Of a DNA stretch of 64,000 nt, positions 1,306 through 64,000 are shown in pieces. Every line of letters starts with the position of its first letter. The first letter of the stretch is position 1. Made by a program: the position numbers and the translations under genes. The notes beneath the pieces are model-generated. The model was not told where the DNA came from. It saw only the letters and a program-made list of their open reading frames with translations, and made no database searches. This DNA is from an uncultured virus (IMG/VR IMGVR_UViG_3300037466_002047) (taxonomy: Duplodnaviria; Heunggongvirae; Uroviricota; Caudoviricetes). Location: the IMG/VR virus record IMGVR_UViG_3300037466_002047. One strand, written 5' to 3'.

Positions 1306-1318
1306 CCGCACAAGGCGA

Positions 1319-2803: not shown

Positions 2804-2820
2804 GATTTCCTCCTTCAGGA

Positions 2821-4131: not shown

Positions 4132-4162
4132 CGAAGCAGCCGATGGCCTGCGCAAGAGCCGA

Positions 4163-10485: not shown

Positions 10486-11076
10486 ATGAGTAAACGCTTC
10501 GCCAAAGCAGCGGAATCGAAACCCAAGGGATCGTCGCCGCGTGAGAAACAGAGCACCCGAAAATACGAGGGAGTAAATCCTACGCTCGCGCCATCTTCAG
10601 AGGGACCAAAACCTCCCGGCCCGGCACCATTCCTCCTCGACCTCGATGCGCAACTCCAACTGTCCGGACAGCCCGTCACGGTGCGCCAATTAATCGATCG
10701 GCTCGCACAGATGGGATGCACCGAATACGAACTCGCAACGCTCTGCGGCATCAGCGAGGAAACGTTTAGAGCGGTGAAGCGCAGGCAGCCCGAGGTCGTA
10801 AAGATCTGGGAGACCGGCCGCGTGACGCGGAAGATATCGCTTCGGCACAAACTCGACCGGCACGCAGACAAACAAGCGAGCGCCGCGATCTTCCTCGCCA
10901 AGAACGAACTTGGCATGCGCGACCAATTCGACATCAAGGGTCAGGTCGATCATCAGCACACCGGCCTGGTCTCATTGATGCAGACGCTCGATGGCAAGCA
11001 CGGCAAGGTGATCGAGGGCGAGGCGCAGGACATCACGCCAGCGACCGGTGCGAAACAGATCGAACATCAGCCGTGA
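10486..11076 (+). CDS. terS: terminase small subunit
   Basis: HTH (GCTEYELATLCGISEETF) plus ASAAIFLAKNELG.RD pattern typical of TerS; upstream of TerL. Confidence 0.7.
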   Translation: MSKRFAKAAESKPKGSSPREKQSTRKYEGVNPTLAPSSEGPKPPGPAPFLLDLDAQLQLSGQPVTVRQLIDRLAQMGCTEYELATLCGISEETFRAVKRRQPEVVKIWETGRVTRKISLRHKLDRHADKQASAAIFLAKNELGMRDQFDIKGQVDHQHTGLVSLMQTLDGKHGKVIEGEAQDITPATGAKQIEHQP

Positions 11077-12671
11077 GTGCAGAGACGCCTCTCGAATGGA
11101 GTCGCCGTCAGCTTCAAGAATGGCGCGCACAGGCGGACTTGGCAGAGGCGCAGGTTCGCTTCTGGCTATCAGAGATCAACCGCATCAAGCGCGAGGATTA
11201 CGAGCGCGCGAAAGGGGAGGAGAAGCAATGAGTGAGCGGAGCACACAGGAACAGCCGACACCGCCGCCCGGCACGAAGGTGCACGTCGCGACCAAATTCG
11301 AGATGCAACTCCAGATGTTGATCGTCGGGCAGCCGAGCGATGAAGTCCTCGAGGCTCTGATGATGGTCCTGCTTTCGACGTTTTGCGGCGCATGCTCGAG
11401 CGCAGATGAGGCGGAGGAGAGCGCCGACAGGTTCGCGGCCTACCTCCGGAAGCACATCCGGCCGAACTTCGGCTACATCAAAGCGCAGCACGCCACGCAA
11501 ACGAACAGCGAGCCCGGCCACGCATGAGCGACGACAAGGTGGTCAAGCTGCCGGTGGTCAGGATCGAGCGCGGCCCCGAGCGCGTCGACAAGCTCGCTGA
11601 AGCGATTAGGAAAAGCCCTGCGACGGTCATGCGCGGGCCTGAAGCGAACTACACGGTCGACGCCAAGCTCCAGGCGTTCACCGATGCCCTGCGGGAGATC
11701 GCCCGCGGCCGTTGCGACACCGGCAGAGCGATGCCAAGCGAGCGCGCGCGGAGAGTCGCACAGGAAGCGCTCGCGACGTGGGGAATGGGATGGGGGCAGA
11801 GCAAGTGACCGGACAACTTGCCCTCCCGCTCGGGCCACAGAGCCGCGCGACTCCGGAGGAGGAACACACCTTCCGCCTCTGGCAATCGGGATATGGCCTC
11901 GAGCGGCTCGCGGCAGAGCGCGGCATCACCGAGGTGCAAATGCTCGGCGTGATCGCTGCCATTTGGCGGAAGTTCGGGCCCGCATGACCCGCATCCACTG
12001 CTGCGTCCCGCATTGCAGGCGCACGCGCGAGAACGCGAACAATCGATCTCGGGAATGGATCTGCGGAAACCACTGGCGGCTGGTCGACAAGGCCCGGCGG
12101 CGAGTGTGGGGGCGCATCAGACGGCGATGGCGTCGCTTCGGGCCAAGGGATGGTGATGACGCGGTTGGGAGGCGGGTCTGGGCTGCGCTAAAGCGGCAGG
12201 CGATAGAACGCGCGCTCGGCATCCGAGGGTGAAGTGTGGGGACAACTCGGTCGGGTCGCATTGCCTCCGAGCACGGCAGGGTGACACTGGCACCGCACAC
12301 AGGGGAGAGCCGAAACGATGTCCCGACTGACCGAAATCCTGAACCACGACAATCCCGACATGCCGGAGGAAACGCGCGCGGAAGCGACGGCAATCCTTCA
12401 GGCGGAGATCGAGCGGCTACAGCAAGCCCTCGGCGTCACCGGGATCGCGCTGGTCGTCTCTGGCGAAGTGAAGCAATGCAAATGCGGCAACCCGGAGCAC
12501 AAGTACGTGCACGTCCTCGACGTGGGCGGCGGCTGGCCGATGCCGATGGAATTTCTCTACACCATGCTCGCGGACACCCGCGCTAATCCCGCTCAGACCC
12601 GCGGGACGTCGGCACGCCCCGAAATCGCCGCGACCCCGGCGAACGCCCCGAGCACGACCACGAAGCAATAG
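11073..12671 (+). CDS. run of small hypothetical ORFs (11073-11231, 11228-11527, 11524-11808, 11805-11987, 11984-12232, 12318-12671)
   Basis: translational coupling; 11984-12232 has a CC.PHC...IC..HW Zn-binding pattern. Confidence 0.6.
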
Positions 12672-15900: not shown

Positions 15901-16146
15901 GTTCTCGTTTGTCGACGCGGCGAGCTTCCCCTAATGCGTGGCACCCGCATTCCATTCCTGCTGGGCGACCTCGAGCGGGCCATCCGCAACATCGCGCCAC
16001 AGACCGGGCAATTGGAGCTACGGCTCCAGCCCGGCACACACCGCCCGGTCATGGAGGCGCTGGCCGATCACTACGGTCGGCCCGAACTGGTCAAGGCGGA
16101 CGAATTCGTCCTCGGCTCGGTGGTGATCAGACGTGGCGGACTTTGA
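12961..16146 (+). CDS. run of hypothetical ORFs (12961-13341, 13408-13731, 13728-14186, 14183-14410, 14415-14624, 14700-15386, 15376-15570, 15581-15934, 15934-16146)
   Basis: coupled ORFs with high GC3; 14700-15386 has two tandem Cys/His Zn-finger-like repeats. Confidence 0.65.
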
Positions 16147-17689
16147 AGATCAGGCGAGCGAGGACATCGCGCGCGAGTACGTGGGCGACAGGCTCACCGA
16201 CCGTGACTACCGGCTGAGCAATCTCTATCGGATCAGAGACGAGCAGGGCAAAGCGGTCCGTTTCGCGCCGAACGATGCGCAGCGCATATTCGACAAGGAA
16301 ATGTGGTTCCGCAACGTCATCCCGAAGGCGCGCAAGCTCGGCTTCTCGACGTTCATTGGCATTTTCATCCTCGATGAGTGCCTGATGACCAGCGGGAGCA
16401 CCTGCGGCATCACCGACCGCTCGATCACCGACGCCGAAGACAAGCTGGCGATGATCAAGTTCGCCTACGAGGGCATGCCGCCGGAGTTGCGGGACTCGTA
16501 TTTCAGGCTGGTCCGCTCCAACGACAAATACATTGAGTGGTCGAACGGCTCATCGGTCTCGGTCGGCCTCACCTATCGCGGCGGCACGCCTCGCATCCTG
16601 CACGTCTCGGAGTTGGGGAAGGTCTCGGTCGACACGCCGGAGCAGGCGCGCGAGATCATGACCGGCGCGATCCAGGCGGTGCCGCAAGGCGGGCTGGTGT
16701 TCGTGGAGTCGACCGCTCACGGCACGAGCGGCATCTTCTGCGACATGGTCAGGCAGGCGGAAGCGCGCCGCATCGCGCATACCCCGCTGACAAAACTCGA
16801 TTTTAAGAGCCAGTTCTTCGGCTGGATGCACAAGCGCGAGTACCGCGTCCCGAACCACCTCGTGATCGTGCCCCAGGAATTGCGCGATTACTTCGCTGAG
16901 TTGCGAGCGAAGCACGGCATCGCGCTCGATGCCGACCAGATGGCGTGGTACGCGCAAAAGCACGCCGAACTCGGGCCCGACGACTGTAAGCAGGAATTCC
17001 CGTCTATCCCCGACGAACTGTTCTATTCGTCGCTGCAGGGCGCGTACTGGCGCAAGGAACTCACCAAGGCGCGCGCCGAGGGCCGCATCGGGCAATTGGT
17101 GCCCTTCGACCCGTCGCGGCCGGTTAACACGTTCTGGGACATCGGGGAGGACTGCACGTCGATCTGGTTTCACCAGACGGATGGCGTGCGCCACCGCTTC
17201 ATCGATTACTACGAGGAGGAGGGCGGCAGCATTCAGTCGGCGTGCGGCGTGGTGCATGCGAAAGCGCGCGACCGCGGCTTCGTCTACAAAAAGCACTATT
17301 TCCCGCACGACCTCGACCGTCGCTCGTGGGAGAACAACGCCACCAACCGGAAAAGCATCGCCACCGAACTGCTCGGTGACCGGATCAAGGTGGTCGACCG
17401 CATCGATGACAAGGCGGACAGCATCGAGGCGGGCCGCCGGATGCTGGCCATGGCGTGGTTTGACCAGCAGCACTGCTCTCGGGGTGTCGAATGCTTGGAT
17501 AACTACCGAAAGCAGTGGAATGACCGCATGGGAATGTTCAAATCGGAGCCGCTGCACGATTGGGCGTCTCACGCCTCCGACGCTCTCCAGCAAGGCGCGA
17601 TGGGACTCGAGCCCGAACGCGCGCCGAGCAAGCGACGAAGCGGGCAATCGCTGGTCGACCGGCCACGGACAACGGCATGGAGCGCGTGA
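16133..17689 (+). CDS. terL: terminase large subunit
   Basis: Walker A PKARKLGFST, Walker B ILHVSE, ESTAHG coupling motif, RNase H-like FWDIG...HDWASHASDA. Confidence 0.95.
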   Translation: MADFEDQASEDIAREYVGDRLTDRDYRLSNLYRIRDEQGKAVRFAPNDAQRIFDKEMWFRNVIPKARKLGFSTFIGIFILDECLMTSGSTCGITDRSITDAEDKLAMIKFAYEGMPPELRDSYFRLVRSNDKYIEWSNGSSVSVGLTYRGGTPRILHVSELGKVSVDTPEQAREIMTGAIQAVPQGGLVFVESTAHGTSGIFCDMVRQAEARRIAHTPLTKLDFKSQFFGWMHKREYRVPNHLVIVPQELRDYFAELRAKHGIALDADQMAWYAQKHAELGPDDCKQEFPSIPDELFYSSLQGAYWRKELTKARAEGRIGQLVPFDPSRPVNTFWDIGEDCTSIWFHQTDGVRHRFIDYYEEEGGSIQSACGVVHAKARDRGFVYKKHYFPHDLDRRSWENNATNRKSIATELLGDRIKVVDRIDDKADSIEAGRRMLAMAWFDQQHCSRGVECLDNYRKQWNDRMGMFKSEPLHDWASHASDALQQGAMGLEPERAPSKRRSGQSLVDRPRTTAWSA

Positions 17690-19585: not shown

Positions 19586-22063
19586 ATGGCCACCGCCACC
19601 ATCGATCAGGACACCGCGGCACCCGACGCGATCTCAAACGCGCCGCAGGACGCCGATGATCCGCGCCCGGTCAGCAAGCTCTCTCCGAGCGAGCAATTCG
19701 AGGTCTTGAAGCGGTGGTGGCGGGCAGACGCCGATCACTCTCGCGAATGGCGGCGTGAGGCGCGGGACTCCTTCGGCTTCCGTGCTGGCGAGCAGTTGTC
19801 GCCGGAAGACAAGGCCGCGCTCGATGAGAAGAATCGGCCGCACATCGTCTTCAACCGGGTGCTGCTGATCCTCAAAGCCGTGGCGGGCATGGAGATCAAC
19901 GGACGGCACGAGATCTCGTTCATCCCGCGCAAAACCGAGGATACGGCGGTCAACGAATTGCTGACCGGCGCATCAAAGTGGATGGCGGATAATTGCGACG
20001 GCGAGGATGAGGAGTCGCAAGCCTTCGAAGATTGCTGCACCTGCGGCATGGGCTGGACAGAGAGCCGCATGTCATTCGAGGACGACGAGGAAGGCTCGTA
20101 CATCGAGGAATCCGTCGATCCGATTGAGATGTATTGGGACCGGACGGCGCGGAAAAAGAACATCAGCGACGCCCGGCGCATGTCACGCGTCCGCCGCATG
20201 CCGTTTGCCGATGCCACGGCGATGTTCCCGGGCAAGACGCGCCTGCAATTGGATGCGCGATGGGCCGATGACAATATGGGCGACTACCCGGAGCGCACGC
20301 TCGAGGAGCGGCGCATCCGTGACGCGGAGAACTCCGGCATCGACCCGCTCGATGACCAGACTGAGGTCACCATCGTCAACATGCAGTGGATCGAGAAGGA
20401 GCCGTATTGGCTCGTTGCCGATCTGCAGACGAACCGCAAGGTGGCGCTGAGCACCACCGAGTATCAGCAATTCTCCAAGCGCATGCAGACGCTCGCCAAG
20501 ATGGTCCCGCCGGAGATGGCCGGGCAATTTCAGGTGCACGCGGTGCGCATGGTCCGGAAGGTCTACAAATCTGCCTTCCTCGGCGGCGAGTTGCTGCAGG
20601 AAGCGCAGAGCACGCCCATCGATAAGCAATTCTCATGGGCTTGCATCACTGGCGAGCGCGACGCCGAGAAAAAGGTGTGGTTCGGGCTCGTCCGGCCGAT
20701 GCGCGATCCGCAGATGTGGGCGAACAAGTGGCTCGCGCAGATCCTGCACATCCTCAACACGACCGCAAAGGGCGGCATCCTTGCTGAGGAGGACGCATTC
20801 GAGGACCAGCGCGAAGCAGAGAACAGCTACGCGCAGGCCGACACGATCACCTACGTCGCGAACGGCGCGCTGTCGGGTGAGAAGCCGAGGATATTGCCGA
20901 AGCCCGGCGCTGGCGACCCGGCGAAGTACGTCGACCTGCTCCAGTTTGCGGTGTCATCGATCCGCGACGTGATCGGCGTGAATCTTGAATTGCTCGGGCA
21001 GCAAGACATGCAGCAGCCGGGCGTGGTCGAGATGATGCGCAAGCAGGCGGGTATGACGGTGCTCGCGACGCTGTTCGACTCGCTGCGCCGTTTCCGCAAG
21101 ATCGTCGGCCGCAAGCGCTTGTTCTTCATCCAGAACTACCTCTCGGACGGCCGCATCATCCGCGTGGCCGGGCAGGATGAGGTCAAGGCGCTGCCGCTGC
21201 TCAAGCAGCAGACGCTCGGTGAATACGATGTGGTGGTCGATGACACGCCGACCAGCCCGAACCAAAAAGAGGCGAATTGGGCGATCATCCAGCCGTTGCT
21301 GGCGGTGTTTAAGGATCAACTCGTCGCCAACCCTGAAATCTTCGCCATGCTGCTGGAGTACTCGCCGCTGCCGAACCGGGTGGTGGAAGCGATCAAGTCG
21401 TTCATCGGAAAGATGCAGCAGAATCCCGACTCCCAGGTCGACAAGAACCTGCAGCGCCAACTCATCATCTCGGAGATCACGAAGAACCAGAGCACGGCCG
21501 AAATGCAGGACGCCAAAGCAGGCGCGACGCAGCAAACGGCGCTCTACGACTTCGCGATGGCCAAGCACATGCTCGAGTCCGGCCAGTACGGGCAACTCAA
21601 GGCGCACCTCGACGCGATGGAGGCATCTGCAAAGGTCCAGGCCGCGCAATCGAATGCGGTCAAGGCAGGGGCAGACGCCGATCACTCGCGGGCAAAGGCC
21701 GCGCGCGAGGTCGTCGGCACGAAACTCGATCTCATGAATGCCCGGCGACAGCACGCCGACCAACAGCATCAGCACGGCATGGATGCCGCCGGTCATCACC
21801 GCGAAATGCTCGGCCATCTGGTCGACAGCATCGGTGCCGTGGCCGGGGCGCATCGCGATATGGCGGCCGCGGCGAAGGATCGAGCCCAGGCCAGCATCAT
21901 GCCGGTGCAGGCGCAGACCGAACGCTTGCAGGCGCACACGCAAGCGCATGCAGCGCGCAGCGCGGATCACCGCAACCGGGCGGCGGCCGAGAAAGATCGC
22001 GTGGCTGCCGCTCGAGACGCGGCGACGCCGATTCAGCAGCCGGGGATGGCAGGCCAGCAATGA
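19586..22063 (+). CDS. portal protein (P22-like) with long C-terminal extension
   Basis: NRPHIVFNR, FED...CGMGW, FGLVRPMRDPQ..AN, YDVVVD..PTSPNQ; follows TerL. Confidence 0.9.
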   Translation: MATATIDQDTAAPDAISNAPQDADDPRPVSKLSPSEQFEVLKRWWRADADHSREWRREARDSFGFRAGEQLSPEDKAALDEKNRPHIVFNRVLLILKAVAGMEINGRHEISFIPRKTEDTAVNELLTGASKWMADNCDGEDEESQAFEDCCTCGMGWTESRMSFEDDEEGSYIEESVDPIEMYWDRTARKKNISDARRMSRVRRMPFADATAMFPGKTRLQLDARWADDNMGDYPERTLEERRIRDAENSGIDPLDDQTEVTIVNMQWIEKEPYWLVADLQTNRKVALSTTEYQQFSKRMQTLAKMVPPEMAGQFQVHAVRMVRKVYKSAFLGGELLQEAQSTPIDKQFSWACITGERDAEKKVWFGLVRPMRDPQMWANKWLAQILHILNTTAKGGILAEEDAFEDQREAENSYAQADTITYVANGALSGEKPRILPKPGAGDPAKYVDLLQFAVSSIRDVIGVNLELLGQQDMQQPGVVEMMRKQAGMTVLATLFDSLRRFRKIVGRKRLFFIQNYLSDGRIIRVAGQDEVKALPLLKQQTLGEYDVVVDDTPTSPNQKEANWAIIQPLLAVFKDQLVANPEIFAMLLEYSPLPNRVVEAIKSFIGKMQQNPDSQVDKNLQRQLIISEITKNQSTAEMQDAKAGATQQTALYDFAMAKHMLESGQYGQLKAHLDAMEASAKVQAAQSNAVKAGADADHSRAKAAREVVGTKLDLMNARRQHADQQHQHGMDAAGHHREMLGHLVDSIGAVAGAHRDMAAAAKDRAQASIMPVQAQTERLQAHTQAHAARSADHRNRAAAEKDRVAAARDAATPIQQPGMAGQQ

Positions 22064-23616: not shown

Positions 23617-23816
23617 CCGTTCTAAGAATTTGATGCCGCGAAGATGCGAGTCGAGAGACAGGGCACTTTCGCGAAGTCGGACGCCTCCCGGTTTAAGCAG
23701 GCAAGCGCAGCATCCGGCGCATACCACGGAGCCCCGCAGCGCAGCGATAACCGCGCACCCCGAATTCCGACGTCACCGCACGCTCGCGTGCAACTTGAAC
23801 AAGGGTGCAGCCCCAA

Positions 23817-24920
23817 ATGTCCATCACCTCCTATGGCGTCAATGACGCCTTGGCGATCAAGCTCTGGTCGAAGAAGCTCGACCACGAGGCGCTGAAATAT
23901 ACCGACATCGGCCCGCTGGTCGGTGACGACGCAAACTCCGTCATCCACCGCAAGACCGAGATGCAGAAGGGCCCCGGCGATAAGGTTACCTTCGGCATCC
24001 GCATGCAGTTGTCCGGCGCTGGCTTCACCGAAAACCAGCTTGCCGAGGGCAACGGCGAGTCGCTCACGACCTACAACGATGCGCTGACCATCAACGAACT
24101 CGGTCACGTCGTCGGTGTGAAGTCGGAGAACACCATCGACGCGCAGCGCGTCCCGTTCAGCCTCCGCGCCGAGGCCAAGAGCGGCCTCGCGGATTGGTGG
24201 CAGAAGCGCTATTCGGTGACGTTCTTCAATCAGGTCTGCGGCTACACGGTGCAGGGCGACACGCGCTACACCGGCTTGCAGGCCGTGCTGGCTGCCACGC
24301 GCATCATCCGGCAGTCCGGCCGCGCGAACGACGAGTCGCTGGTTGCCGCGGACACCTTCACTCTCGATCTGATCGATAAGGCGAAGGAAACCGCGACCAC
24401 GGCGACGCCGAAGATCCGGCCGATTGCGGTGAAGGGCGCTGGTGGTGGCGATGGCCGCCGCGACTTCAACGCGACGCTCACCGACAAGTACATCATGTAC
24501 TTGCATCCATATCAGGTCACCGACCTCCGGAAGAACACCTCGACCGGCCAGTGGCTCGATATCCAAAAGGCCGCGTACATGGGCATGGGCGCGACCCGCA
24601 ACCCGATCTATTCGGGTGCCCTGGGCGAGTACAACGGCGTGATCCTGCGCAGCGCCATTGACGTCACCAATGGCGTCTCGAGCGCCGGTGCCGACGCCCC
24701 GAACGTCAAGCGCGCGGTGCTGCTCGGCGGTCAGGCGTGCATGATCGGCTTCGGCCAGAAGAATGCCCCCAGCAAATTCCGCTGGAACGAGGAGTTGTTC
24801 GATCACAAGCGCCGCCTCGAGGTGTCCGCTTGGTCGATCTGGGGTCTGAAGAAGACTCAGTACAACGGCAATGACTACGGCGTGGTGGTCGTCGCGACCT
24901 ACGCCGTGGCGCACACCTAA
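23817..24920 (+). CDS. major capsid protein (N4-gp56/DUF4043-like)
   Basis: KLWSKKL, KGPGDKVTF, AEGNGESL, GALGEYNGVIL, RAVLLGGQA, WNEELFD, GLKKTQYNGNDYG. Confidence 0.9.
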   Translation: MSITSYGVNDALAIKLWSKKLDHEALKYTDIGPLVGDDANSVIHRKTEMQKGPGDKVTFGIRMQLSGAGFTENQLAEGNGESLTTYNDALTINELGHVVGVKSENTIDAQRVPFSLRAEAKSGLADWWQKRYSVTFFNQVCGYTVQGDTRYTGLQAVLAATRIIRQSGRANDESLVAADTFTLDLIDKAKETATTATPKIRPIAVKGAGGGDGRRDFNATLTDKYIMYLHPYQVTDLRKNTSTGQWLDIQKAAYMGMGATRNPIYSGALGEYNGVILRSAIDVTNGVSSAGADAPNVKRAVLLGGQACMIGFGQKNAPSKFRWNEELFDHKRRLEVSAWSIWGLKKTQYNGNDYGVVVVATYAVAHT

Positions 24921-51641: not shown

Positions 51642-52168
51642 CAGCCCCTCTCCAATTCGGCTCGCGTGATGCCGAGCACGCCAGCGAGATATTCAAGCAC
51701 GTCCTCACACGACCGTCGGTATTCTTCCTTGGTCATGTGCCCCTCTTCCGGATCGCCCACTTTCTGGCTCCGGGGGGCGCGGACGCGCACGGCATTTCCG
51801 GACACGGTGACGACTACGCCATCGTTCGCGCGGTCTTTCAACGCCCATACGCCGATGGCCTGGGCCGCCTGCTCATTGGCGGCCTCGAGGTAGGAATCGA
51901 CGTACCAGCCGGTGTTGATGAGCGCCCGGTGCCGCATGTCGGACACGGTCGGGTAGCGCGCGGTCTGCTCGGGGGTGAGTTGGTCGTGGGCACGCCGGAT
52001 GATCGCATGATAGCGCCCGCGCTCCCGCGGCGAGACGTCATCGACCTCTACCGCCTCCATCACGTAGCGGCGGCCGTCCTGCATTCGATTGCGGCAGAGC
52101 AAGAGGTACTTCGGATCGGGCCTGAGCACGCCAGCCTCGGCGTCCCAGACGAACGGCACCGGCTGCAT
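51641..52168 (-). CDS. recombination-module accessory protein (NinB/Orf-like position)
   Basis: directly after the exonuclease; RH.ALI.TGW, PRSQ, M.KEEY..S...VL. Confidence 0.55.
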   Translation of the reverse strand: MQPVPFVWDAEAGVLRPDPKYLLLCRNRMQDGRRYVMEAVEVDDVSPRERGRYHAIIRRAHDQLTPEQTARYPTVSDMRHRALINTGWYVDSYLEAANEQAAQAIGVWALKDRANDGVVVTVSGNAVRVRAPRSQKVGDPEEGHMTKEEYRRSCEDVLEYLAGVLGITRAELERG

Positions 52169-52800
52169 CAGCGCACCCCGTAGTTCCGGACCAGGGCGCA
52201 GAGCGCGTCGCAGTCTTTGTTAAATTGCAGGACCGCGGCATAGAGATCCTTGATGAATTTATCGTCGCGGAAGATGCGGAAGCGCGGGGTAACAGGCATG
52301 GTCCGGTAGTAGCAGACGACGTCGCACCATTCGCGCTCACAAATCCAGAGACACCCCTGCACCTGTGCCATGTGCTCGGGGGGCATCCGGTCGAGGCGGA
52401 TCGTCTCCACCATGATGTGGGGCGATTGCGATTTAAATTCGACAATACCCTTGTCACCGACAAGCCCATCAGGGCTGCAGGAGCACATGCCGTCCCGGTG
52501 CACGACAAGCCCGACCTTGCGCACGGTCTCGTCGGTCAGGAGTTCGTAGGCGCTGAGCGCCTCGGGCTCCATGGTGTGGCCTCGGTCGGTGTAAGAATTG
52601 GAAAATGACTCCGCGGGCTCCCCGGAGAGACGTTCGCCAGCGATCTTCCGGAGATATTCGTCGCGCACTTTGCCCTCGCCCTTGGCGAGGATCTTCTTGA
52701 AATTGCTGGCGGTGGGGCGGCCGCAGCGGTGCTCAAACCACTCCGGCGAGTTCTGTTCGCACTCTATGACGAGCGGCTGTTTCCCGAGACGGTTTGACAT
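52168..52800 (-). CDS. YqaJ/lambda-exonuclease family protein
   Basis: EQNSPEW...R.G.PTAS, RGH.MEP.A, SPDGLVG...VEFKS, QVQG.LW. Confidence 0.92.
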   Translation of the reverse strand: MSNRLGKQPLVIECEQNSPEWFEHRCGRPTASNFKKILAKGEGKVRDEYLRKIAGERLSGEPAESFSNSYTDRGHTMEPEALSAYELLTDETVRKVGLVVHRDGMCSCSPDGLVGDKGIVEFKSQSPHIMVETIRLDRMPPEHMAQVQGCLWICEREWCDVVCYYRTMPVTPRFRIFRDDKFIKDLYAAVLQFNKDCDALCALVRNYGVR

Positions 52801-53606
52801 CACTTCTGCCGGATGAGGTTCATGGCCTGGGCGAACTGCTGGCCGGAGAGTTGATCGACCGCTTCGACTCCGAAGTGGGTGCAAAGCTTCGGCACGTCCA
52901 CGCCCTTAAATTCGATTGCCTTGTTCAACTCATCGAGTTGCTTCTTGGTGATCGGCGTGACGTCGCGCGCGCGCTCGCCATCGGTATCCTCGCCAGCGAT
53001 GGTCACATCGAAAATCATCAGCTTGAGGTAGCGCCGACCGTAGGAGAGGATGACGCCGACGCCCTGCGATGGGGCCATCAACTCCTTGCCCTGCGGCGAC
53101 TTGTGCGCGCCCGCGGGGAAGTCGAGGAAGTACTCGCGGCTCCAGCCAGAATGCCCATGGATGAGAACGCCTTTGACGCGATAGTGCCCATCCAGAGGAG
53201 AGTCGGCCATCGTCGTGGTAAGGCCGAAGCCGTGCTTCGCCATCAGCGGGTCCAGTTCGGATGACACCTTCTCGAGCGTCGCATATTTATGCTTGTCCGA
53301 TGCCTTATCCTTCGCGATGCGCGGCCGCGCCGATTGCAGCGCGATCAGCGCGGAGAACGCCTCGCGCTCCGCTTGGCGCGCGCGCTCCTCGTTCAGCAAT
53401 TTGGTGAGTTCGCCCATCTTCGCGGTATCGACCCTCGGATCGAGAGAGGCAGCGAGGATGCTCGCGAGCATGGTGTCCGCCGGAGCGGGCGCGGCGGCCG
53501 GAGCGGCGGCAACCGCCACCTCCTGAGATTTGCGCTTCCGGGTCGGCGCGACGTCGGCCTCCATCGGAAGCTCGGGAGATTTATCGGCGGTGGCGGCCTT
53601 GGTCAT
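52800..53606 (-). CDS. ERF-family single-strand annealing protein
   Basis: KYATLE, P.M.KHG, H.HSG, QG.G..LSYGRRYL......GEDTDG. Confidence 0.88.
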   Translation of the reverse strand: MTKAATADKSPELPMEADVAPTRKRKSQEVAVAAAPAAAPAPADTMLASILAASLDPRVDTAKMGELTKLLNEERARQAEREAFSALIALQSARPRIAKDKASDKHKYATLEKVSSELDPLMAKHGFGLTTTMADSPLDGHYRVKGVLIHGHSGWSREYFLDFPAGAHKSPQGKELMAPSQGVGVILSYGRRYLKLMIFDVTIAGEDTDGERARDVTPITKKQLDELNKAIEFKGVDVPKLCTHFGVEAVDQLSGQQFAQAMNLIRQK

Positions 53607-53981
53607 TTGTTCAAATTTCCTTGTTGGTGGTTGGGCGCGCGAGATGATGCAGGAACAGCGTCTCGCGGCGGAAAGCAGAGCACCCCTGCTCTGGTAGGCG
53701 GAAGGTCGCCCACATAGGGCTGTTGCGATTTTCACAAACGGCCCCGGCGCGATCATTCTCGGCCAGGATCACGCTATCGCACCAAAAGCGGCAGACGGCG
53801 CATCGATTAGGCGCGCATTTTTCAGTCATTGGAGTCACCCCTCTATGCCCACCCGGGAGAGGCGAGACGGTCGGCGCTTTGAATGAAGGAAGGGCAGTTC
53901 GGCTCGAGTTTCCCGGGACACGAAGCGGCAGGTTCGCGTGGGTGAGCGGGCGGGGAAAGCGCGATTCCGGTCATTCCACTG

Positions 53982-54627: not shown

Positions 54628-55098
54628 ATGGCTCGCAAGGCCAAGAACGCCGACTCCGGCGAGAGCAAAGTGTCGACGTCCGTGTCGGTGCTGATCAACG
54701 CCAACCAATTGAACAATCTCATCAAAGCCGGTCGCTCGACCGCGAAGCAGACGGCCGAATTGACCGGCTCGTTCCGCGAGAAGATCGCCTATGCGAAGGA
54801 CAAGCAGTGCCTCCACACCAAGGCGTTCGCGCACACGCGCCAGATGGACAAGATGGAGCCCGAGCAACTGCTCGAGTACTGGACGCACCTGCTCGCCTAC
54901 ATGGACATGGCGGGCATCAAGGAACGCATGGACGCTGTCGGCACGCTCGGCCTCGATGATGGCGATGCGCCCGCCGGTGCTGACGTCGGTGGCCGTCCCG
55001 CGAACGTCGAAAGCCTTGCGGAAAAGCGCAAGCGCCGCAGCGCCGCGGCCGAAGGCGAAGGCGAAGGCCAGGGCGAACCCGAAACCGCCGTCCACTGA
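54628..55098 (+). CDS. GapR-like (DUF2312-related) DNA-binding protein candidate
   Basis: helical pattern ...IAYAKDKQCLHTKAF...MDKMEP...LLAYMDMAG resembling the GapR core. Confidence 0.45.
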   Translation: MARKAKNADSGESKVSTSVSVLINANQLNNLIKAGRSTAKQTAELTGSFREKIAYAKDKQCLHTKAFAHTRQMDKMEPEQLLEYWTHLLAYMDMAGIKERMDAVGTLGLDDGDAPAGADVGGRPANVESLAEKRKRRSAAAEGEGEGQGEPETAVH

Positions 55099-55682
55099 TG
55101 CGTCCGTTCGCGGACCTTGCCGGGCGAAAGTTCGGCCACCTCGTCGCCGTCTCCTCCGAATTGAGGGGGCGGCGACGTTATTGGGAATGCCGCTGCGAGT
55201 GCGGAACGGTAAAGCGCATCAGGCATGATGGCCTGCTCGCTGGCGACCATACATCCTGCGGGTGCCTTAAGGGTTTCGCACACGGCGGCACTGGCACGCC
55301 GGAACATAAGGCGTGGTGCAATATGATCGAGCGGTGTCACACGACAACGCATCGCGAATATCGACGCTATGGCGGGCGCGGGATTGAGGTCTGTCAGGAA
55401 TGGCGAGAGAGCTTCATTGCATTTCTGCGGCACATCGGGCCACGTCCATCACGGAAGCATTCCGTCGACCGGATAGACAATAACGACGGCTACCGCCCCG
55501 GCAACGTCCGATGGGCGACCGCGCGGCAGCAAGCCCACAATCGGCGCGGTCAAATCAATGAAGCGATAGCGGAGCGCGTCCGCAAGGCGAAGGGTAAGCA
55601 AATCGAAATAGCGCAGCGATTTGGAATACATCCTTCGACCGTCAGTCGCATAAAATCGGGTGAACAATGGGCCTCTATTTAG
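55098..55682 (+). CDS. HNH homing endonuclease
   Basis: CRCECG, SCGC, W.NM..RC, YGGRGI.VC.EW, SVDRIDN..GY.PGNVRWAT..QQ..N; C-terminal HTH. Confidence 0.9.
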   Translation: MRPFADLAGRKFGHLVAVSSELRGRRRYWECRCECGTVKRIRHDGLLAGDHTSCGCLKGFAHGGTGTPEHKAWCNMIERCHTTTHREYRRYGGRGIEVCQEWRESFIAFLRHIGPRPSRKHSVDRIDNNDGYRPGNVRWATARQQAHNRRGQINEAIAERVRKAKGKQIEIAQRFGIHPSTVSRIKSGEQWASI

Positions 55683-57818: not shown

Positions 57819-58609
57819 TGAGCAACGAACTCACAACGCAGGCAGAAAACCGGCGGCCGGTGCTGGCGGACGATCCGACGACGCGCGAGATCGTCCGCGT
57901 GCTCACGCTGATGAAGCTCGCTGACGGGGAGCGTGAGCTTCGCCGCGAACTCAAGCCGGGTGAGCGCAAGGCGCTCGAGCGCCGCAAGATCGAAATCGGG
58001 CGCTTCCTCCGGCCGATTGATCGTGCCGATGAGGAGCGTCGCCACCTCGCGCAGACGCTCGGGCAAATGTTCCTCGGCTTTGGGACGGCAAATACGAAAG
58101 ACGCCGCCGCGAAGGTTTCGGCTTACATCGAGGGCCTACTCGACCAGCCACTGCACGCGATCCTTTGCGCCATCGATGACATCCGGAGGGGCAACACGGA
58201 TCTGGATTCCTCCTTCGCGCCGACCAGCGTCGACATCGTTAAGGCGGCGAAAAAATACACCGAGGATGCGCGCGCGGAGTTGGCGGCCATCGACGCGACG
58301 CTCCGCGGCAAGCCCGGCCAAGTCCAGATCAGCGAAGCGGAGCGTGCGCGCATTGGTGCTGGACTCAAGGATCTCGCGAAGGGGATGCGCGCCAACCTCG
58401 ACGGCGAAAAAATCGACAAAGGCGACGAATTCGCCAAGGCCGCGGCCGCCAGGAATAACTCCTACATCGGAAACGAGTGGGAGCGGTACGGGCTCGAGCC
58501 GCGCTATGCGGACAAGGAAAAGACGATTCCGGTGAGTCTCGCGCTGGCGCGCATGAACAATCCGGAGTTGGATGTTCAATGCCGCAACATCGAAAAACGG
58601 AGGAAGTGA
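57818..58609 (+). CDS. helicase-loader-like protein (by position)
   Basis: follows the initiator; Y...L.D.P..AI..A......FAPT. Confidence 0.5.
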   Translation: MSNELTTQAENRRPVLADDPTTREIVRVLTLMKLADGERELRRELKPGERKALERRKIEIGRFLRPIDRADEERRHLAQTLGQMFLGFGTANTKDAAAKVSAYIEGLLDQPLHAILCAIDDIRRGNTDLDSSFAPTSVDIVKAAKKYTEDARAELAAIDATLRGKPGQVQISEAERARIGAGLKDLAKGMRANLDGEKIDKGDEFAKAAAARNNSYIGNEWERYGLEPRYADKEKTIPVSLALARMNNPELDVQCRNIEKRRK

Positions 58610-58998
58610 ACGTGAGCAGCAACGGATGGGTCGGCGTCGACCTCGACGGCACGTTGGCCTTTTACGACCACTGGCGCGGGCCCGAGCACATCGGCGCTCC
58701 GATCCCCGCCATGCTCGAGCGCGTGAAGCGCTGGATCGCGGAGGGCCGGGAGGTCCGCATCTTCACGGCACGCGTCGACAATGCGAACGGGGACGCCTTC
58801 ACGGCCCGCCGCGCCATCGAAGCGTACTGCCAGGAGCATGTCGGTGAGGTGCTCCCGATCACCAACCAAAAGGACTACCGGATGGTAGAAATGTGGGACG
58901 ACCGCTGCGTACAGGTCATCCCAAACACCGGCCGCACGATTGCGGACGAATTGGAATCCGAGCGCATGGCGCGCGCGGGCAAGCAGGCGGGGCACTGA
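58606..58998 (+). CDS. HAD-family phosphatase (PNK 3'-phosphatase-like)
   Basis: VGVDLDGTLA, IFTAR, TNQKD, WDDR. Confidence 0.88.
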   Translation: MNVSSNGWVGVDLDGTLAFYDHWRGPEHIGAPIPAMLERVKRWIAEGREVRIFTARVDNANGDAFTARRAIEAYCQEHVGEVLPITNQKDYRMVEMWDDRCVQVIPNTGRTIADELESERMARAGKQAGH

Positions 58999-59037
58999 CG
59001 CCCGGTTCGGTTGGTAGGAGTTAGTAGCGTGGGATCG

Positions 59038-59346
59038 ATGAAAGAGTTGCTTGGTGATGATCCGCAAGCGTTCGCGCGGCACACCGACCCAGGGACGAGC
59101 CGCGAAGCGGCGGCCCGCATCAGCAGCAAAGTTAATAAGCTCGAGCAGGCGGTCGCTGACTCGATAAAGGCGGCGGGCGTGGCGGGGCGCACGTGGGACG
59201 AGATCGCGGCCGATACCGGGTTGGATAAGGCATCGGTGTCGCCGCGCTTTAAGCCACTGCGCAAAAAAGGCGTCATCCGCGCCAAGGTCGATGATGCTTC
59301 GAAGGAAGTGAGACGCGACCGGCAAACCGTGTGGGTGGCGGTGTAG
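59038..59346 (+). CDS. winged-helix DNA-binding protein
   Basis: AR.TDP.TS.EAA; TWDEIA..TG...SVSPR...L...G; VW. Confidence 0.7.
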   Translation: MKELLGDDPQAFARHTDPGTSREAAARISSKVNKLEQAVADSIKAAGVAGRTWDEIAADTGLDKASVSPRFKPLRKKGVIRAKVDDASKEVRRDRQTVWVAV

Positions 59347-60288
59347 CCATGCCGAGCACGCCCACGGCGGCTGTAGAAAAGCATACGCTTCCGACACGCC
59401 GGAAGCAGCGTGCCGCCGCGCTTTTCGGCCTTCGGATGATCGGGCGGGGATGGAGCGGGCAGGCCAACGAGGAAAACGCCGCTATGAGCGAGGCAGGAGC
59501 AAAGCTGTTGAACGCCGCCCGCGAGGCAGTGCAAGTGGCCACTTGCGACCATCGACTTGAACTGATCGCGAGGCAGGAAAAGGCAGACGGCACCGTCTAC
59601 ACCGCTCACTGCCTTAAATGTCGGGCGCGCTTCACCACGCACCGCCTTTCAGAATTAACAAGATTGTAGAGAGACGCCGCCATGACGATTATGCCTGTAG
59701 AGACGTTTCAGCCGTTTGCGCGGCAGATGTTTGAGGCGGTTTCGGCAGCTTGTGCGCTCCCTGACGGGACTAGTCGCGAAGTACTTTTGAAGTCGCTCGC
59801 CGCTGCCGTTATGGCCGCAACGCATGTGCCGGTCATGGTCACGGACGACAATCTAAAATCGGAGGTGAAATAGCCCGCTATGGCGCAGATCGGCGGAAGG
59901 CTTGGCGGAAAGACCGCAGCTATGGAGAAGCTGCGGGACGAGTTCTTGCGAAAGCATCCGAAGGCTACCGTCGCCACCTGTCATCCTGGCGGCGAGGTCA
60001 TCGTCGAGAAGCACGTCGAGGAACTCGGTCCACTACGGCTAACCGATCAACGGAAGGAATAGCCCGGTGAGCGACAAACGCGAATGGGTGATCCGCAAGC
60101 GCGGATACTTCTACCGGCCCAATCGTGCGGGCTACACGTCGAATATAAACGAGGCTGGGCGTTACACCCAAGCCGAAGCGACGGCGGAGGAACGGGTCGA
60201 GCCGATGCTAATCACCGCGCACCTCGCCTGCGAGTTCGAGAACTTCGCGGCCTACGGGCCGATGGACGACGCAACCTAACAGGTTAGC

Positions 60289-60505
60289 CCGCCATGATCA
60301 CAGATAATAATCGCAGCTTTTTGAAGCTACTCCTGCGGTCCCCCGACATCGGCGACGGCTGGCGTCAGGTTTCGGATGTCGTCTGGCCGCTCGTATCGGG
60401 GTTTGACAAGAAAGAACTACTGGAATTGAACGAAGACGAGAAGCGGGTCCGATTGTCCCCTGACGGTCTAGTCGTAGCGAACTACTTGGTTTGAAGGAAT
60501 ATGCC
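60289..60505 (+). repeat. 217-bp exact direct repeat, copy 1 (carries the 66-aa ORF MITDNNRSF...)
   Basis: base-by-base identical to 62106-62322. Confidence 0.97.
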
Positions 60506-61078
60506 CGTGGCGCGATACACCGACATGGCACTGGCGCAGATCAGGGCGGCAGCAGGAAGCAATCAGGCCGAATGGTCAGAGTTCGACCACGCGATTATGA
60601 ACATCGCGCGGGAGGCCGACGAGGAGGTCGAGCGGCTGCGCCAGGTCGAACACAGGTATTTGGAAATGAGAACGGCCGCTCAATCTGCGGCTCACTCTGG
60701 ATGACAGGATAGCCCCGCAATGTCTTACGCCGACGATCTAGCGAAGGACCGGGACAAGTACCGGGCGCAGCGCAACCAACTTGCGCGGATGCTCGAAACG
60801 CTGATCGAGGATGCTACGCCAAAGAACGTCGCGGCGGCGAAGAAGCTCCTGCGGAAAATTGAGCAGTCGGACCCGATTGCAAATGCAGTATCCAAGATAA
60901 CAGGATAGCCCGGTCATGCTGCGCTATTGGTACACGCTAAAGGGCTGGCTGGAATGGCCGATGTGCTGGGTTCGCGGCCATGACATGCACACGTTCCCGG
61001 CGTCATGTGCGGATGGTGCCGGGTACATCTACTGCACCCGTTGCAACAAATTGGAAGAAGTGTAGGAACACCCCGATC

Positions 61079-61348
61079 ATGTGGCAGCCAATGAAAACCG
61101 CTCCGAAGGACGGGACGTGGATTGTTGCCTTCCGTCCGCCTGCGAATGTCGGATCGTGGGACACCTTCGTTCCCGTCAGGTGGGACCAAGACCTAGAAGA
61201 TTTTGTATGGCCAGACCGGCACTGCACGGTTGATCCGTACACCGCCGCAGCCGATGACGACGATTGGCTGGTCGGTGGCGACTACTACGAAGCCAAGGGA
61301 ACGTTCACCCACTGGATGCCGTTGCCAGACCCGCCGAAAACGAATTGA
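61079..61348 (+). CDS. DUF551-like protein
   Basis: WQPMKTAPKDGT...THWMPLP.PP. Confidence 0.8.
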   Translation: MWQPMKTAPKDGTWIVAFRPPANVGSWDTFVPVRWDQDLEDFVWPDRHCTVDPYTAAADDDDWLVGGDYYEAKGTFTHWMPLPDPPKTN

Positions 61349-62105
61349 ACATTTTGTGGAGATAGGCCGCTGCCATGACCGAACTCAGCGACTACAGGCG
61401 CATGATCGAGAGGCCGATGCTGGCGTCGAAAGATGCCGAGATTGCCCGACTGCGCACCTTGAACCGCAAGCTGGTAATGTCGCTTGCCGTCACCTTCTGC
61501 GCGGGCACGTTCTACTGGCTCGCCTACGTGTTGAGATAGCCCGATCAAACGTCAGATGGCCCCTGGTAGAAGTCGCGGGAAACCGCCGCCAACGGAGGTC
61601 GAGGCGTGACAGACCGGAGAGACGGTCACGAGATAGATGGACCCGACGCGACACCTGCCGGGGTCTATGGTGGACCGCAAGGAGTGGTGCGACAGCCGGA
61701 GAGACGGCACTGAAATAGAGGACGGGCAGGCCGATGACCACTCTTCCTGTTGACTACCGAAAGCGCCCTTGGCGGGCTAAGTACCTAGACGAAGAAACGC
61801 CGGTACTTAGCAGGTGGATTGTGTTTGGCGAATTTGACGACGGCACCGTCGGCATTAGCGACATGAACTCTGACATTTTCGAGCATGTGCCCAGAGACGT
61901 TGCCGAGCAGATTATCGACGCGCGAAACGCCTTTGTTGACGTTGTCTTAAAACACTTCTCCCACCTGTAGGATTGCGCCCGATGCCGCGCTATCGCGTAG
62001 AGTTCAAAGAAACGCGAACCCATGTTGCGGTTATCGAGGCCGACGACGCCGAAATCAAGCGCGTGGTGTCCGCACGGATCGCCATGCATAACCTGTCGAG
62101 ATAGG

Positions 62106-62322
62106 CCGCCATGATCACAGATAATAATCGCAGCTTTTTGAAGCTACTCCTGCGGTCCCCCGACATCGGCGACGGCTGGCGTCAGGTTTCGGATGTCGTC
62201 TGGCCGCTCGTATCGGGGTTTGACAAGAAAGAACTACTGGAATTGAACGAAGACGAGAAGCGGGTCCGATTGTCCCCTGACGGTCTAGTCGTAGCGAACT
62301 ACTTGGTTTGAAGGAATATGCC
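62106..62322 (+). repeat. 217-bp exact direct repeat, copy 2
   Basis: identical to 60289-60505. Confidence 0.97.
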
Positions 62323-62323
62323 G

Positions 62324-62767
62324 CTAACCGAGCGTCCCAGGCGCGAAGCAATATGTCTGCCTACCGCCGCCGACACCTACCCACCACCAAACCGCATGTC
62401 CTGTCGGATTCGGGCCAGTGAGAACCTTGTACTTCTCGATTTTCTCGCCTTCGACTATCACGCTGCCGTCTTGGTTGAGCGTGTAGTCGCCATAGTACGG
62501 ATGCCCGTCTGCTTCGTCACAGCACCATAGGCCAGCTGCGTTGTGCTGTGACCTATACCACTGCGCATGAGGGGCATTGGCGTATTTGCCGGAGGGATCG
62601 CGGGCATGAGCGGTTGCCAGACCAATCAAACATGCGATGATGATCAGTGCACCATAAATGGCTTTCGTCTGCCAGTCGCCAAATCTGCTATAGTCGGACG
62701 TCTCCGGCGAATAGATTTTGCCGCTCAGCCTGAAAGCTTCGGAGAGCGGATCGTCCAGATCGCTCAT
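62324..62767 (-). CDS. secreted/membrane-anchored Cys-containing phage protein
   Basis: TM + AHA, WY......CCDEADG, PNPTGHAVWW, YCFAPG. Confidence 0.7.
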   Translation of the reverse strand: MSDLDDPLSEAFRLSGKIYSPETSDYSRFGDWQTKAIYGALIIIACLIGLATAHARDPSGKYANAPHAQWYRSQHNAAGLWCCDEADGHPYYGDYTLNQDGSVIVEGEKIEKYKVLTGPNPTGHAVWWWVGVGGGRQTYCFAPGTLG

Positions 62768-63105
62768 CCTGTATATTCCCGGTCGATGCCACGTGCGCCG
62801 CGCACAAACCCCTCACCGTGACGCAACTCGTCATAGCGGCGATCAAGGGTATCCATGCGAGCGTCCATCGTATCGAGGCGCTGCTTTTGAACGGCCACGT
62901 CGGTCAGAAGTGTATTGACGACCTTCATTTCATCCTTCAGACCTTTGATCTCGTCTGCTTGTTGCTTCATGGCCAATTCTACCCGCCCGGTAGTGCGACC
63001 GAGTCGGATCAAAATAAGGCCGCCGCCGCCGACGATGCCGATAACTTCGATTAGCTTTAGCCCTGTATCGAGTGCAGCGAGTGCATCGGCCCCTGTCACT
63101 GCCAC
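62764..63105 (-). CDS. TM plus coiled-coil lysis-module-type protein
   Basis: N-terminal TM, heptads, RYDELRHGEGF. Confidence 0.65.
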   Translation of the reverse strand: MAVTGADALAALDTGLKLIEVIGIVGGGGLILIRLGRTTGRVELAMKQQADEIKGLKDEMKVVNTLLTDVAVQKQRLDTMDARMDTLDRRYDELRHGEGFVRGARGIDREYTG

Positions 63106-63215
63106 GACCTTTCATTAACGTTTATTGGTTCAAGATCGTCGGCGGTCATTCGGGCCTCCTTTCAGGCTCGGGTGGTCAGGGTCGGGCGAGCGTTGCCGCG
63201 CTCGTTCGGCCCGCT

Positions 63216-63611
63216 CTACTTTCGTCCGAAAATGGCAATCGCGGCCTGGGAAAGCCCTTGACCTATGCCGACAGCGGCACCGGACGGAAACACGTTGGCG
63301 ATGATGAGCCTCGCCCATTCGAGCGTTTCGCCTTCCAGGTGGGGCGTATGGCCCAGGCCGAGCGCGGAATCCCACGCCACGGACTTGCCGAAGTAGAAGG
63401 CGAGAGGCAGCGTGAATGCGAGCCACGCGACCCAAAAGGCCCGATAGGCCATCGCCGCTTTGGTTTGGCTAAGGCGTGCCTCCAGCGTCTTAATGCGGGC
63501 GTCCCACAGGATTCGCTCTTGATCGGTCTGCGCGTTCTCATGCGCTGTGTAGGCCGCCGTCATATCCTTTAGAATTGCGCCGATCGGATTGAGCCAAGCA
63601 AGGAAGCCCAT
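63216..63611 (-). CDS. holin-like membrane protein
   Basis: amphipathic N-terminus, W...FTLPL..YFGK.V.WD..LGLG.T..L. Confidence 0.65.
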   Translation of the reverse strand: MGFLAWLNPIGAILKDMTAAYTAHENAQTDQERILWDARIKTLEARLSQTKAAMAYRAFWVAWLAFTLPLAFYFGKSVAWDSALGLGHTPHLEGETLEWARLIIANVFPSGAAVGIGQGLSQAAIAIFGRK

Positions 63612-63614
63612 GGC

Positions 63615-63971
63615 TCACGCCTTTTTCAGCGTGCGAGCGCGTGCCCAAGCAACGACGGCGGCAAAGAGAGCTAGGGCAATGCCGACATCCGTGGGCGTCA
63701 CCCACGCCTGGATAACCTGCTTGAATGCGTCTGCTGCGCCGGGATCATTCAGCAGACCGCAAACCCAATCTGTGACTTGGCTGCTAACCGCGACGAGAAG
63801 TCCGGAAAGCACCCCGAGCTGCGCCACAACCATCGTGGCCGATCCCCTCCCCGCATCGATCCATCTGCCGAATCCGGTTGAGGTCGATTTCAGGTACGAG
63901 GAAACGAAGTCATAGAGGACGACCGCGAAGATCGCGAGCGCGACAAAAGTGGTGATAGCTTTGAACGACAT
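63615..63971 (-). CDS. 3-TM holin-like protein
   Basis: three hydrophobic helices; basic C-terminus ARARTLKKA. Confidence 0.6.
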   Translation of the reverse strand: MSFKAITTFVALAIFAVVLYDFVSSYLKSTSTGFGRWIDAGRGSATMVVAQLGVLSGLLVAVSSQVTDWVCGLLNDPGAADAFKQVIQAWVTPTDVGIALALFAAVVAWARARTLKKA

Positions 63972-64000
63972 AGCTCAGCCCTTTTTGTGGAAATATCGAA

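Follow-up and report, generated by a model that had tools for sequence, protein, structure and literature searches.

Small phage genes joined by a common linker: an array that behaves as a set of swappable cassettes

Can the small genes which close the early operon of a phage be exchanged one by one, and does the short sequence which joins them take part in the exchange? We will discuss this question for an uncultured virus, IMG/VR record IMGVR_UViG_3300037466_002047, of which we have studied a stretch of 64,000 nucleotides (nt). We call this whole stretch the window: it is phage DNA, it is part of its contig, and the negative results on its recombinases apply within it. The element in question is an array of small genes in positions 59349-62323, which forms the distal end of an early operon on the plus strand and converges head-on with minus-strand genes whose products are small proteins of membrane type. 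It contains the units U1 to U13 (Table 1), which code for proteins of 40-106 amino acids (aa), and one unit of 194 nt with no credible open reading frame (ORF). A prediction made from the sequence alone had described here about 14 units joined by a conserved CCG junction, and had suggested a new system of gene capture or shuffling. We have found that the feature is real and specific to the array, and that its units behave like swappable cassettes. The best reading is modular shuffling mediated by the linker, with built-in translational coupling, and not an integron.

Read from 5' to 3', the linker is made of a purine-rich Shine-Dalgarno (SD) sequence (AGGA, GAGA or GGAG), (A/T)TAG, C or G, CC(G), 0-5 nt and a start codon, ATG or GTG; the core stands 0-7 nt ahead of the start codon. 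All 15 junction strings of the original prediction are present at their places, with a correction on three of them: the string at 59469 lies within U1, a single ORF open from 59349 to 59669, and does not separate two units; that at 61533 leads into the 194-nt stretch without credible ORF; that at 62311 closes the array and has no gene downstream. The remark that the TAG of the motif is often the upstream stop codon also stands: TAG is the stop of 8 of the 13 array genes, against 15 of 88 other genes (Fisher p = 1.4e-3). At U4>U5, U6>U7 and U9>U10 the motif TAG is not the stop codon, therefore the motif is more than an SD sequence beside a stop.

The motif was proposed to be an array feature, which would not be the case if it were equally common before ordinary genes. 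It is not: with crude gene calls, TAG.{0,2}CC is found within 16 nt before 8 of the 14 array starts and before none of the 86 other starts (Fisher p=1.6e-8). CCG is found in positions -10 to -1 of 12 of the 14 array starts and of 23 of the 86 others (Fisher p = 4e-5; random 10-mers give 25%). The signal is one of clustering, because the whole-window total of TAGSCCG on both strands, 15 copies, is not above that of shuffled sequences, with a mean of 11.4. On the plus strand the window has nine copies, seven of them within 59871-62108 (Poisson P ~2e-9 for seven in 2.2 kilobases, kb). The longer ATAGSCCG has six of its seven plus-strand matches inside the array, and the structural genes have no motif. 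A run of small genes at about 7.5-12 kb (7500-11800, plus strand), with many 4-nt overlaps, serves as an internal control: it does not use the linker. The spacing of the genes also sets the array apart. Within it, each of the 12 stop-to-start pairs is separated by a gap of 2-26 nt, whereas outside it 24 of 65 co-oriented neighbour pairs overlap by 4 or 1 nt.

Cassettes in different neighbourhoods

The units had been described as single, otherwise unrelated ORFs, which is mostly the case; the exception is U5 and U13, which are identical. Their repeat goes from CCGCC-ATG to TGAAGGAATATGCC, and on both sides the sequences diverge exactly there; U13 retains its SD tail with no gene downstream. A protein scan with U5 gave 100% matches in two viral contigs, G001 and G002. 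We treat them as one other phage, so that three phages are compared: the window, G001/G002 and G003, which is described below. G002 stops within U5, while G001 starts within one U5 copy and has a second copy 560 nt further on. Across the 51 kb of G001 and G002, U5 is the only DNA with more than ~82% identity to the window, and it is 99-100% identical. In the four complete contexts the identity begins at CCGCC-ATG behind four different tails (GGTTAGC, GAGATAGG, GGATTAGC and AGGATAGG) and stops at GGAATATGCC ahead of four different continuations. A recurrence of single units with the same ends in other neighbourhoods, which had been proposed as a check, is thus found for U5 in G001 and G002. One base difference (alignment column 220, position 60467) distinguishes the phages and not the two U5 copies within each; this only weakly suggests homogenisation or a recent separate duplication. 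Altogether U5 appears in at least five left-hand and five right-hand contexts. Its tail is kept in five different right-hand contexts, even at two array ends where no gene follows, as expected for units which extend from a CCG head to a purine-rich tail. In the same way the tail of the DUF551 unit precedes three different genes.

G003 was found through a 17-base search with the tail of U9, the DUF551 unit. It is a complete phage of 44,216 nt; its capsid and portal are of the SU10 type, and it also codes for a GapR-like protein, AAA_24 and a tyrosine integrase. Its array, in positions 1064-4158, is made of 15 cassettes joined by this linker. Fourteen of the 15 stop in TAG, against 6 of the 42 other ORFs (p = 7e-8). 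Ten of the 13 forward pattern matches in its 44 kb are found within 2.3 kb; the reversed-pattern control has six forward matches. The DNA in common with the window is limited to the gene which follows the array (91% identity) and small patches, and some tail proteins are 45-55% identical. When this right-flank gene was used as an anchor we found eight loci, with the motif in G003 alone.

The alignment of G001 with G003 is the most informative. Identity begins at GCCC-ATG, preceded by the U5 tail in G001 and by a promoter-proximal leader in G003. The cassettes d and DUF551 are 100% identical. G003 has then 262 extra bases, which correspond exactly to one cassette with ATAGGCC on either side, and after this insertion cassette e shows two differing positions. 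Past GATTAGCCC the two phages part ways: U5 follows in G001 and cassette f in G003. Cassette f is present twice in G003 (one differing position), its ends again lie in the core and its copies bracket the cassettes g, h and i. One duplicated cassette which encloses other cassettes, an arrangement we will call X-cargo-X, is found in all three arrays. In aligned homologous loci, units have therefore been added, removed, duplicated and rearranged, and the breakpoints fall inside the TAG(S)CC core; a fixed gene order, or breakpoints unrelated to CCG, is not what these relatives have. As read in these alignments, insertion, duplication and re-pairing of single cassettes at the core are shown: the head goes with the downstream gene, the tail with the upstream gene.

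We have compared the 39 junctions of the three arrays. TAG[CG]CC is present at 23 of them, and identical linkers of 12-19 nt are found on unrelated cassettes. The final 16 nt of U7 also form the tail of cassette c of G002, which is otherwise unrelated, and both proteins end in KITG; U12 and the unrelated cassette l of G003 have the same 16-nt tail; cassettes h and k of G003 have 14 nt in common; GAGATAGGCCGC is common to four junctions. Since tail families cross unrelated cassettes, the homology at junctions is often 12-19 nt, beyond the core of 6-8 nt. The tails themselves have moved between genes.

Outside these three phages we have not found the array. All linker scans used exact patterns only. 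A search for a degenerate tail pattern gave 51 loci, with an array only in the two which are G003. One of the candidates examined, L040, has three pattern matches, which lie on the antisense strand of structural genes; another, L021, is a chance match. The search for U5 gave two loci in genome contigs (49% and 57% identity) and three in metagenome contigs (47-56% identity), none of them with a motif array, and the distant U5 relatives (44-59% identity) have no motif. U9 and U4 have a single distant viral relative each, where the motif is missing; for U1 and for the winged helix-turn-helix gene ahead of it (59011-59346) no viral relatives were found.

Four rhizosphere metagenome runs (X1-X4) contain the stretch. 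Their evidence comes as assembled contigs only, and X1 may be the source of the window. The contigs end or branch at the linkers 60063, 60277, 60507, 61370, 62089/62100 and 62324, beyond which other genes are found. After the ...AATAGC of U3 (60063) X1 has a different gene, and after the U5 tail (60507) a third kind of gene. In X4 the DUF551 tail (61370) is followed by the second DUF551 gene of the G003 type, and cassette l of G003 stands ahead of 62089. Contexts of G002 and G001 are seen before 60277 and 62100 and behind 62324. Two units form stand-alone contigs: U3 (59871-60069) in X3 and U5 (60289-60505, 217 nt) in X2. The depth of U5 in X2 is 75.5, against 8.5 and 3.7-5.3 for its neighbours, which fits the presence of U5 in several genomes. 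Among the 24 loose ends listed, 7 of the 12 distinct places inside the array are at linkers, which represent ~12% of the array. As a separate observation, the depth in X2 and X4 rises 5- to 6-fold in 57934-58150 and 58585-58801, inside larger early genes: other, more abundant genomes share both patches, therefore these are mosaic joints not tied to the linker.

How the cassettes may be exchanged

We read the region as a hyperplastic array of accessory genes which ends the early operon of the phage. Each cassette has the form CC(G/C), 0-5 nt, start codon, ORF, purine-rich SD, (A/T)TAG and G/C, so that the last codons and the stop of one gene make the ribosome-binding region of the next one. With this translational coupling, a cassette with standard ends would be translated wherever it is inserted. 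The shared core of 6-8 nt, often 12-19 nt, would allow short-homology crossovers between non-allelic junctions, either within one genome or between co-infecting phages or prophages. Such crossovers could insert, delete, replace or duplicate single cassettes. The enzymes would be annealing recombinases, Erf/YqaJ in the window and AAA_24 in G003, or host functions. The X-cargo-X arrangement might come from a non-allelic linker crossover between two arrays which both carry X, or from the integration of a circle through X. A standard linker for translational coupling thus probably doubles as a short-homology crossover point.

Several facts weigh against this interpretation. The exact TAG[CG]CC core is missing at 16 of the 39 junctions, and its 6-8 nt are below the homology length usually ascribed to annealing recombinases; the identity of the enzyme is a guess. 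The precision of the breakpoints does not separate homology-driven from site-specific exchange, because the core contains the only shared bases. The pattern totals of G001 and G002 do not stand out from the reversed-pattern control (4 vs 5 and 3 vs 3): only the clustering does, with five of seven matches in the 1.6-kb array. The comparison has three arrays only, and X1 is possibly the window's own source. There are loose ends inside the array off the linkers, at 59368, 60020 and 61331, breaks within the larger upstream genes, at 57985, 58066 and 58728, and a cluster of loose ends in 60616-60648, whose matches are very short and may stem from other organisms. Therefore exchange is not confined to linkers.

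Instead of a crossover point, the linker might be a regulatory site similar to the start-associated sequences (SAS) of mycobacteriophages: an operator in mRNA or DNA, bound or cut by some phage or host factor which would regulate the accessory genes together at the level of translation, while recombination would be illegitimate and untargeted and selection would preserve whole genes together with their site. We consider this rather unlikely, in spite of several favourable facts. The conserved bases exceed the needs of SD pairing, and TAG(S)CC is kept at the three junctions where its TAG is not the stop. It is also present in the promoter-proximal leaders of G002 (GGGGTAGGCCGC-ATG) and G003 (GGAGAGGCCC-ATG). 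Position, single orientation and restriction to the non-structural part agree with the description of SAS in the part of PMC3203893 consulted, and mosaic breakpoints are found off linkers too. On the other hand a one-cassette indel between direct repeats of the core and identical 12-19 nt linkers on unrelated cassettes are predictions of repeat-mediated exchange. A regulatory site alone leaves the duplications which enclose cargo in all three arrays unexplained, and we have not found a candidate binding factor common to the three phages. An evolved exchange site, a sort of 'mini-integron', is another proposal. Morphologically unrelated phages of one host community would trade single ORFan genes as small circles or by non-allelic crossovers, through annealing recombinases acting on 8-19 nt or an unrecognised enzyme, and the cargo would probably be genes for host takeover or counter-defence. 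The tail of the neighbouring cassette would ensure their expression. We also regard this proposal as unlikely.

A dedicated gene-capture system, as suggested by the original prediction in its integron-style form, would make the linker the site of a specific enzyme, coded outside the window or by the host, with circles excised and inserted as in integrons. We have found no positive support for it and think it quite improbable. It would agree with the fact that all breakpoints tested in well-matched comparisons fall within a few bases of the same core, with the many contexts of one cassette on both sides, and with X-cargo-X, which the integration of circles would yield. A resolvase-family gene is even found directly upstream of the G002 array and divergent from it (L005 3501-4148, minus strand; 215 aa, resolvase/invertase family, Resolvase + HTH_7). 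However tblastn finds no homologue of this gene in the window (best E 2.4), and another gene replaces it in G003. G003 itself has AAA_24 and an ordinary tyrosine integrase, its only tyrosine recombinase, 36 kb from the array. A co-occurring recombinase had been proposed as a check, and we have found no site-specific one common to the three phages. In agreement with the prediction, there is no match to Phage_integrase or Resolvase among ~84 ORFs of the window scanned with Pfam, and no attC-like palindrome: none of the 25 inverted-repeat pairs listed has both arms at one junction. The junctions cannot hold an attC because they are only 2-26 nt long. The linker core has no dyad symmetry, and no circles are seen in the contig data, where a backward-running joint is explained by the linear arrangement of G001. 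As to exchange driven by a nuclease (compare the part of PMC10055350 consulted), we have discarded it as a candidate: the HNH gene 55098-55682 is 4 kb from the array and is not common with G003.

Finally the array could be trivial, a composition of ribosome-binding site plus stop codon in a GC-rich phage, or an artefact, a chimeric metagenome assembly over the U5 repeat. The whole-window count of TAGSCCG is indeed not above shuffles, the window is apparently derived from a metagenome, and public contigs break at U5, so that the joins of each U5 copy to its flanks are not confirmable from them. Yet the motif is absent from the 86 other gene starts. Among 49 unrelated viral loci there are at most three pattern matches per strand, against ten in the G003 array, and none of the seven loci with distant relatives of the flank gene carries the motif. 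The X1 contigs bridge every junction of the window array around U5, with similar segment depths of 10.8-15.3, and the same architecture is found in the independently assembled G001 and in the complete G003. We consider a trivial or artefactual origin extremely improbable.

The units and their surroundings

The features of the array and its neighbours are given in Table 1.

Table 1. Units of the array and other features of the window
Feature	Positions	Strand	Remarks
YqaJ-type exonuclease	52168-52884	-	General recombination gene of the phage; with Erf spans 52168..53756
Erf single-strand annealing protein	52800-53756	-	General recombination gene of the phage
U1, 106-aa ORF	59349..59669	+	Open throughout; internal ATG at 59484
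U2, 63 aa	59682..59873	+	Tail AAAATCGGAGGTGAAATAG like that of G003 cassette f
U3, 60 aa	59880..60062	+	Own 205-nt contig (59871-60069) in X3
U4, 70 aa, GTG start	60067..60279	+	One distant viral relative
U5, 66 aa, first copy	60294..60494	+	Repeat unit ~60289-60505, CCGCC-ATG to GAAGGAATATGCC
U6, 65 aa counted from GTG	60507..60704	+	In-frame ATG 60501 too near the SD
U7, 62 aa	60720..60908	+	Last 16 nt CAAGATAACAGGATAG; protein end KITG*
U8, 49 aa, cysteine-rich	60916..61065	+	
U9, 89 aa, DUF551	61079..61348	+	Tail TGAACATTTTGTGGAGATAGGCC (to 61368) common to the DUF551 cassette of G001 and G003
U10, 54 aa, hydrophobic C-terminus	61375..61539	+	
Unit without credible ORF, 194 nt	61540..61733	+	Two copies of a 24-nt repeat
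U11, 78 aa	61734..61970	+	
U12, 40 aa	61982..62104	+	Tail TGTCGAGATAGGCCGC (16 nt)
U13, second U5 copy, last cassette	62111..62311	+	SD tail to ~62322, no gene beyond
Converging 147-aa gene closing the array	62324..62767	-	Not at the corresponding position in G003
Conserved right-flank gene, 113 aa	62764..63105	-	DNA 91% identical to the gene just past the G003 array

The units have little in common besides the linker. There is no paralogy among them except for U5 and U13, which are the same, and the DUF551 pair (35% identity). The only families matched by the cassettes are DUF551 and a few PHROGs whose function is unknown. U9 reaches the Pfam gathering score for DUF551 (PF04448), with 24.3 bits for a cut-off of 22 (E 5.9e-5); cassette D1 of G003 has 23.7 bits. 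No other cassette is as promiscuous as U5 or reaches its depth, and the U5 family has nine members among 5.8 billion proteins. The Atlas model of U5 (predicted template-modelling score, pTM, 0.64) resembles small winged-helix DNA-binding proteins with template-modelling (TM) scores of 0.6-0.72, all under the bar of the tool: a fold of winged-helix type is a lead only. That the cargo serves in host takeover or counter-defence is guessed from where it lies and how it turns over.

Two units depart from the simple form. The string which had been taken as the first junction, GAGGAAAACG followed by CCGCTATG, falls inside the U1 ORF, which reads AAC GCC GCT ATG where other junctions show TAG CCC GCT ATG. 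X1 contigs terminate at 59480, within U1. This gene is possibly two older cassettes fused through the loss of a stop codon. The unit without credible ORF has direct repeats of 24 nt in 61614-61637 and 61696-61719; both contain a small CCGGAGAGACGG hairpin and finish in a degenerate tail, GAGATAGA or GAAATAGA. Its fold z-score is -2.4, and an X2 contig has a variant with two separate 1-nt deletions. It has no match in Rfam, as is the case for the whole region 58500-64000 at E up to 1. It may consist of decayed cassette tails or be a small RNA.

The rest of the window has the usual features of a phage: a large terminase (16133-17689), a portal (19586-22063), a capsid (23805-24920) of the Phage_capsid_3 type, tail genes and a lysozyme. 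The early operon begins at ~54 kb on the plus strand with genes for HNH, a RusA-like resolvase, an MT-A70 methylase, a DnaD-like replication protein and a small winged-helix protein. The closest matches among GenBank phages are weak and belong to Rhizobium and Mesorhizobium phages: we found no close relative there, only patches of 67-72% identity in an upstream gene and nothing across the array. The host is likely to belong to the alphaproteobacterial group. We looked for tandem repeats and found none. Inside the array there are no terminator-like sites on the plus strand and only one promoter-like match, which is weak; the arrays of G003 and G002, read by eye, begin after a promoter-like divergent region. 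At the right end, one X4 contig connects 62114 directly to 62771 and omits the 147-aa gene 62324-62767. In G003 the portal is split into two adjacent ORFs (L025 9762-12061, minus strand), which cover positions 2-169 and 171-590 of SU10_portal; the cause could be a frameshift or an error of sequencing, unless the split is real.

Comparison with known systems

An integron has an integrase IntI, an attI site, attC sites which are imperfect palindromes of tens of bases, and a promoter Pc; its promoterless cassettes are expressed from upstream. The array resembles it as a co-oriented row of single-gene cassettes, reassorted between elements and with varied neighbours. It differs by the lack of attC, IntI and attI, by expression at the level of translation through the tail of the neighbour, and by its carrier, which is a phage.

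Short conserved boundary sequences, or linkers, were reportedly proposed for the mosaicism of lambdoid phages by Susskind and Botstein in 1978 and by Clark and colleagues in 2001. There, as far as the sources consulted describe it, homologous recombination at short conserved sequences of gene boundaries joins unrelated modules, as it might do here. According to the part of PMC3029335 consulted, conserved boundary sequences could not be found at most mosaic boundaries and such linkers have seldom been detected at mosaic joints. In our case, in contrast, one linker family is found at almost every joint of three arrays, and it is built into the translation signals. By word matching in open-access text we found no description of an SD-stop linker which marks single-gene exchange points in phages.

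The PeSL units (early promoter plus stem-loop) of T4-type phages are similar in several respects. In the parts of PMC2839356 and PMC4122927 (Comeau et al. 2014) consulted, runs of small, mostly ORFan and non-essential genes have a single conserved expression signal between them. Related phages differ by indels and replacements which break within that signal, as we have found here, and there is no dedicated integrase. Their authors drew the parallel with integrons, and circles from exchange between neighbouring signals were shown (Arbiol et al. 2010, in the part of PMC2839356 consulted). However PeSL signals are transcriptional, with a promoter and a terminator hairpin, whereas the junctions described here have 2-26 nt with only SD, stop and start inside one operon. 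A sigma-70-type early promoter with a terminator stem-loop was not found at the array junctions, which are too short for it. Our phages are not related to T4 (the window has Phage_capsid_3 and G003 is SU10-like), and the exchange is known here from assembled sequences alone.

The SAS of cluster K mycobacteriophages, which the original prediction had named as an analogue, are similar in position and style. In the part of PMC3203893 (Pope et al. 2011) consulted, a short asymmetric motif, always oriented in the same way, stands a few bases before starts and is restricted to the non-structural region of the genome. Within it are the SD, extra bases unable to pair with 16S rRNA and sometimes the upstream stop, and it precedes diverse gene families; GGATAG...CC is found in both motifs. 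The array linker also lies near the start (0-7 nt for its core, 3-7 bp for SAS), in one orientation and in non-structural genes only. The 13-bp sequence itself is missing: the consensus GGGATAGGAGCCC with up to three mismatches has no match in 59300-62330 and 17 in the whole window, where 20.6 are expected. Inverted repeats similar to those of the extended SAS (ESAS) are not present in the array. SAS sites are scattered over a genome arm, whereas the linker heads the genes of one array, and the host groups differ, mycobacteria there and likely alphaproteobacteria here. No role in gene exchange is given for SAS in the consulted parts of PMC3203893 and of a 2025 survey (PMC12699233).

Insertions, duplications and re-pairings of one gene are directly readable in these natural sequences, which offer a clean system for testing whether very short homologies direct gene exchange between unrelated phages and whether translational coupling makes small genes portable. 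The turnover speed of accessory or counter-defence genes in soil phages could be gauged in the same system, and the linker is a possible handle to search for such gene pools in metagenomes. Among known systems the shuffling of PeSL units is the nearest in function, and the SAS of cluster K are the nearest in form.

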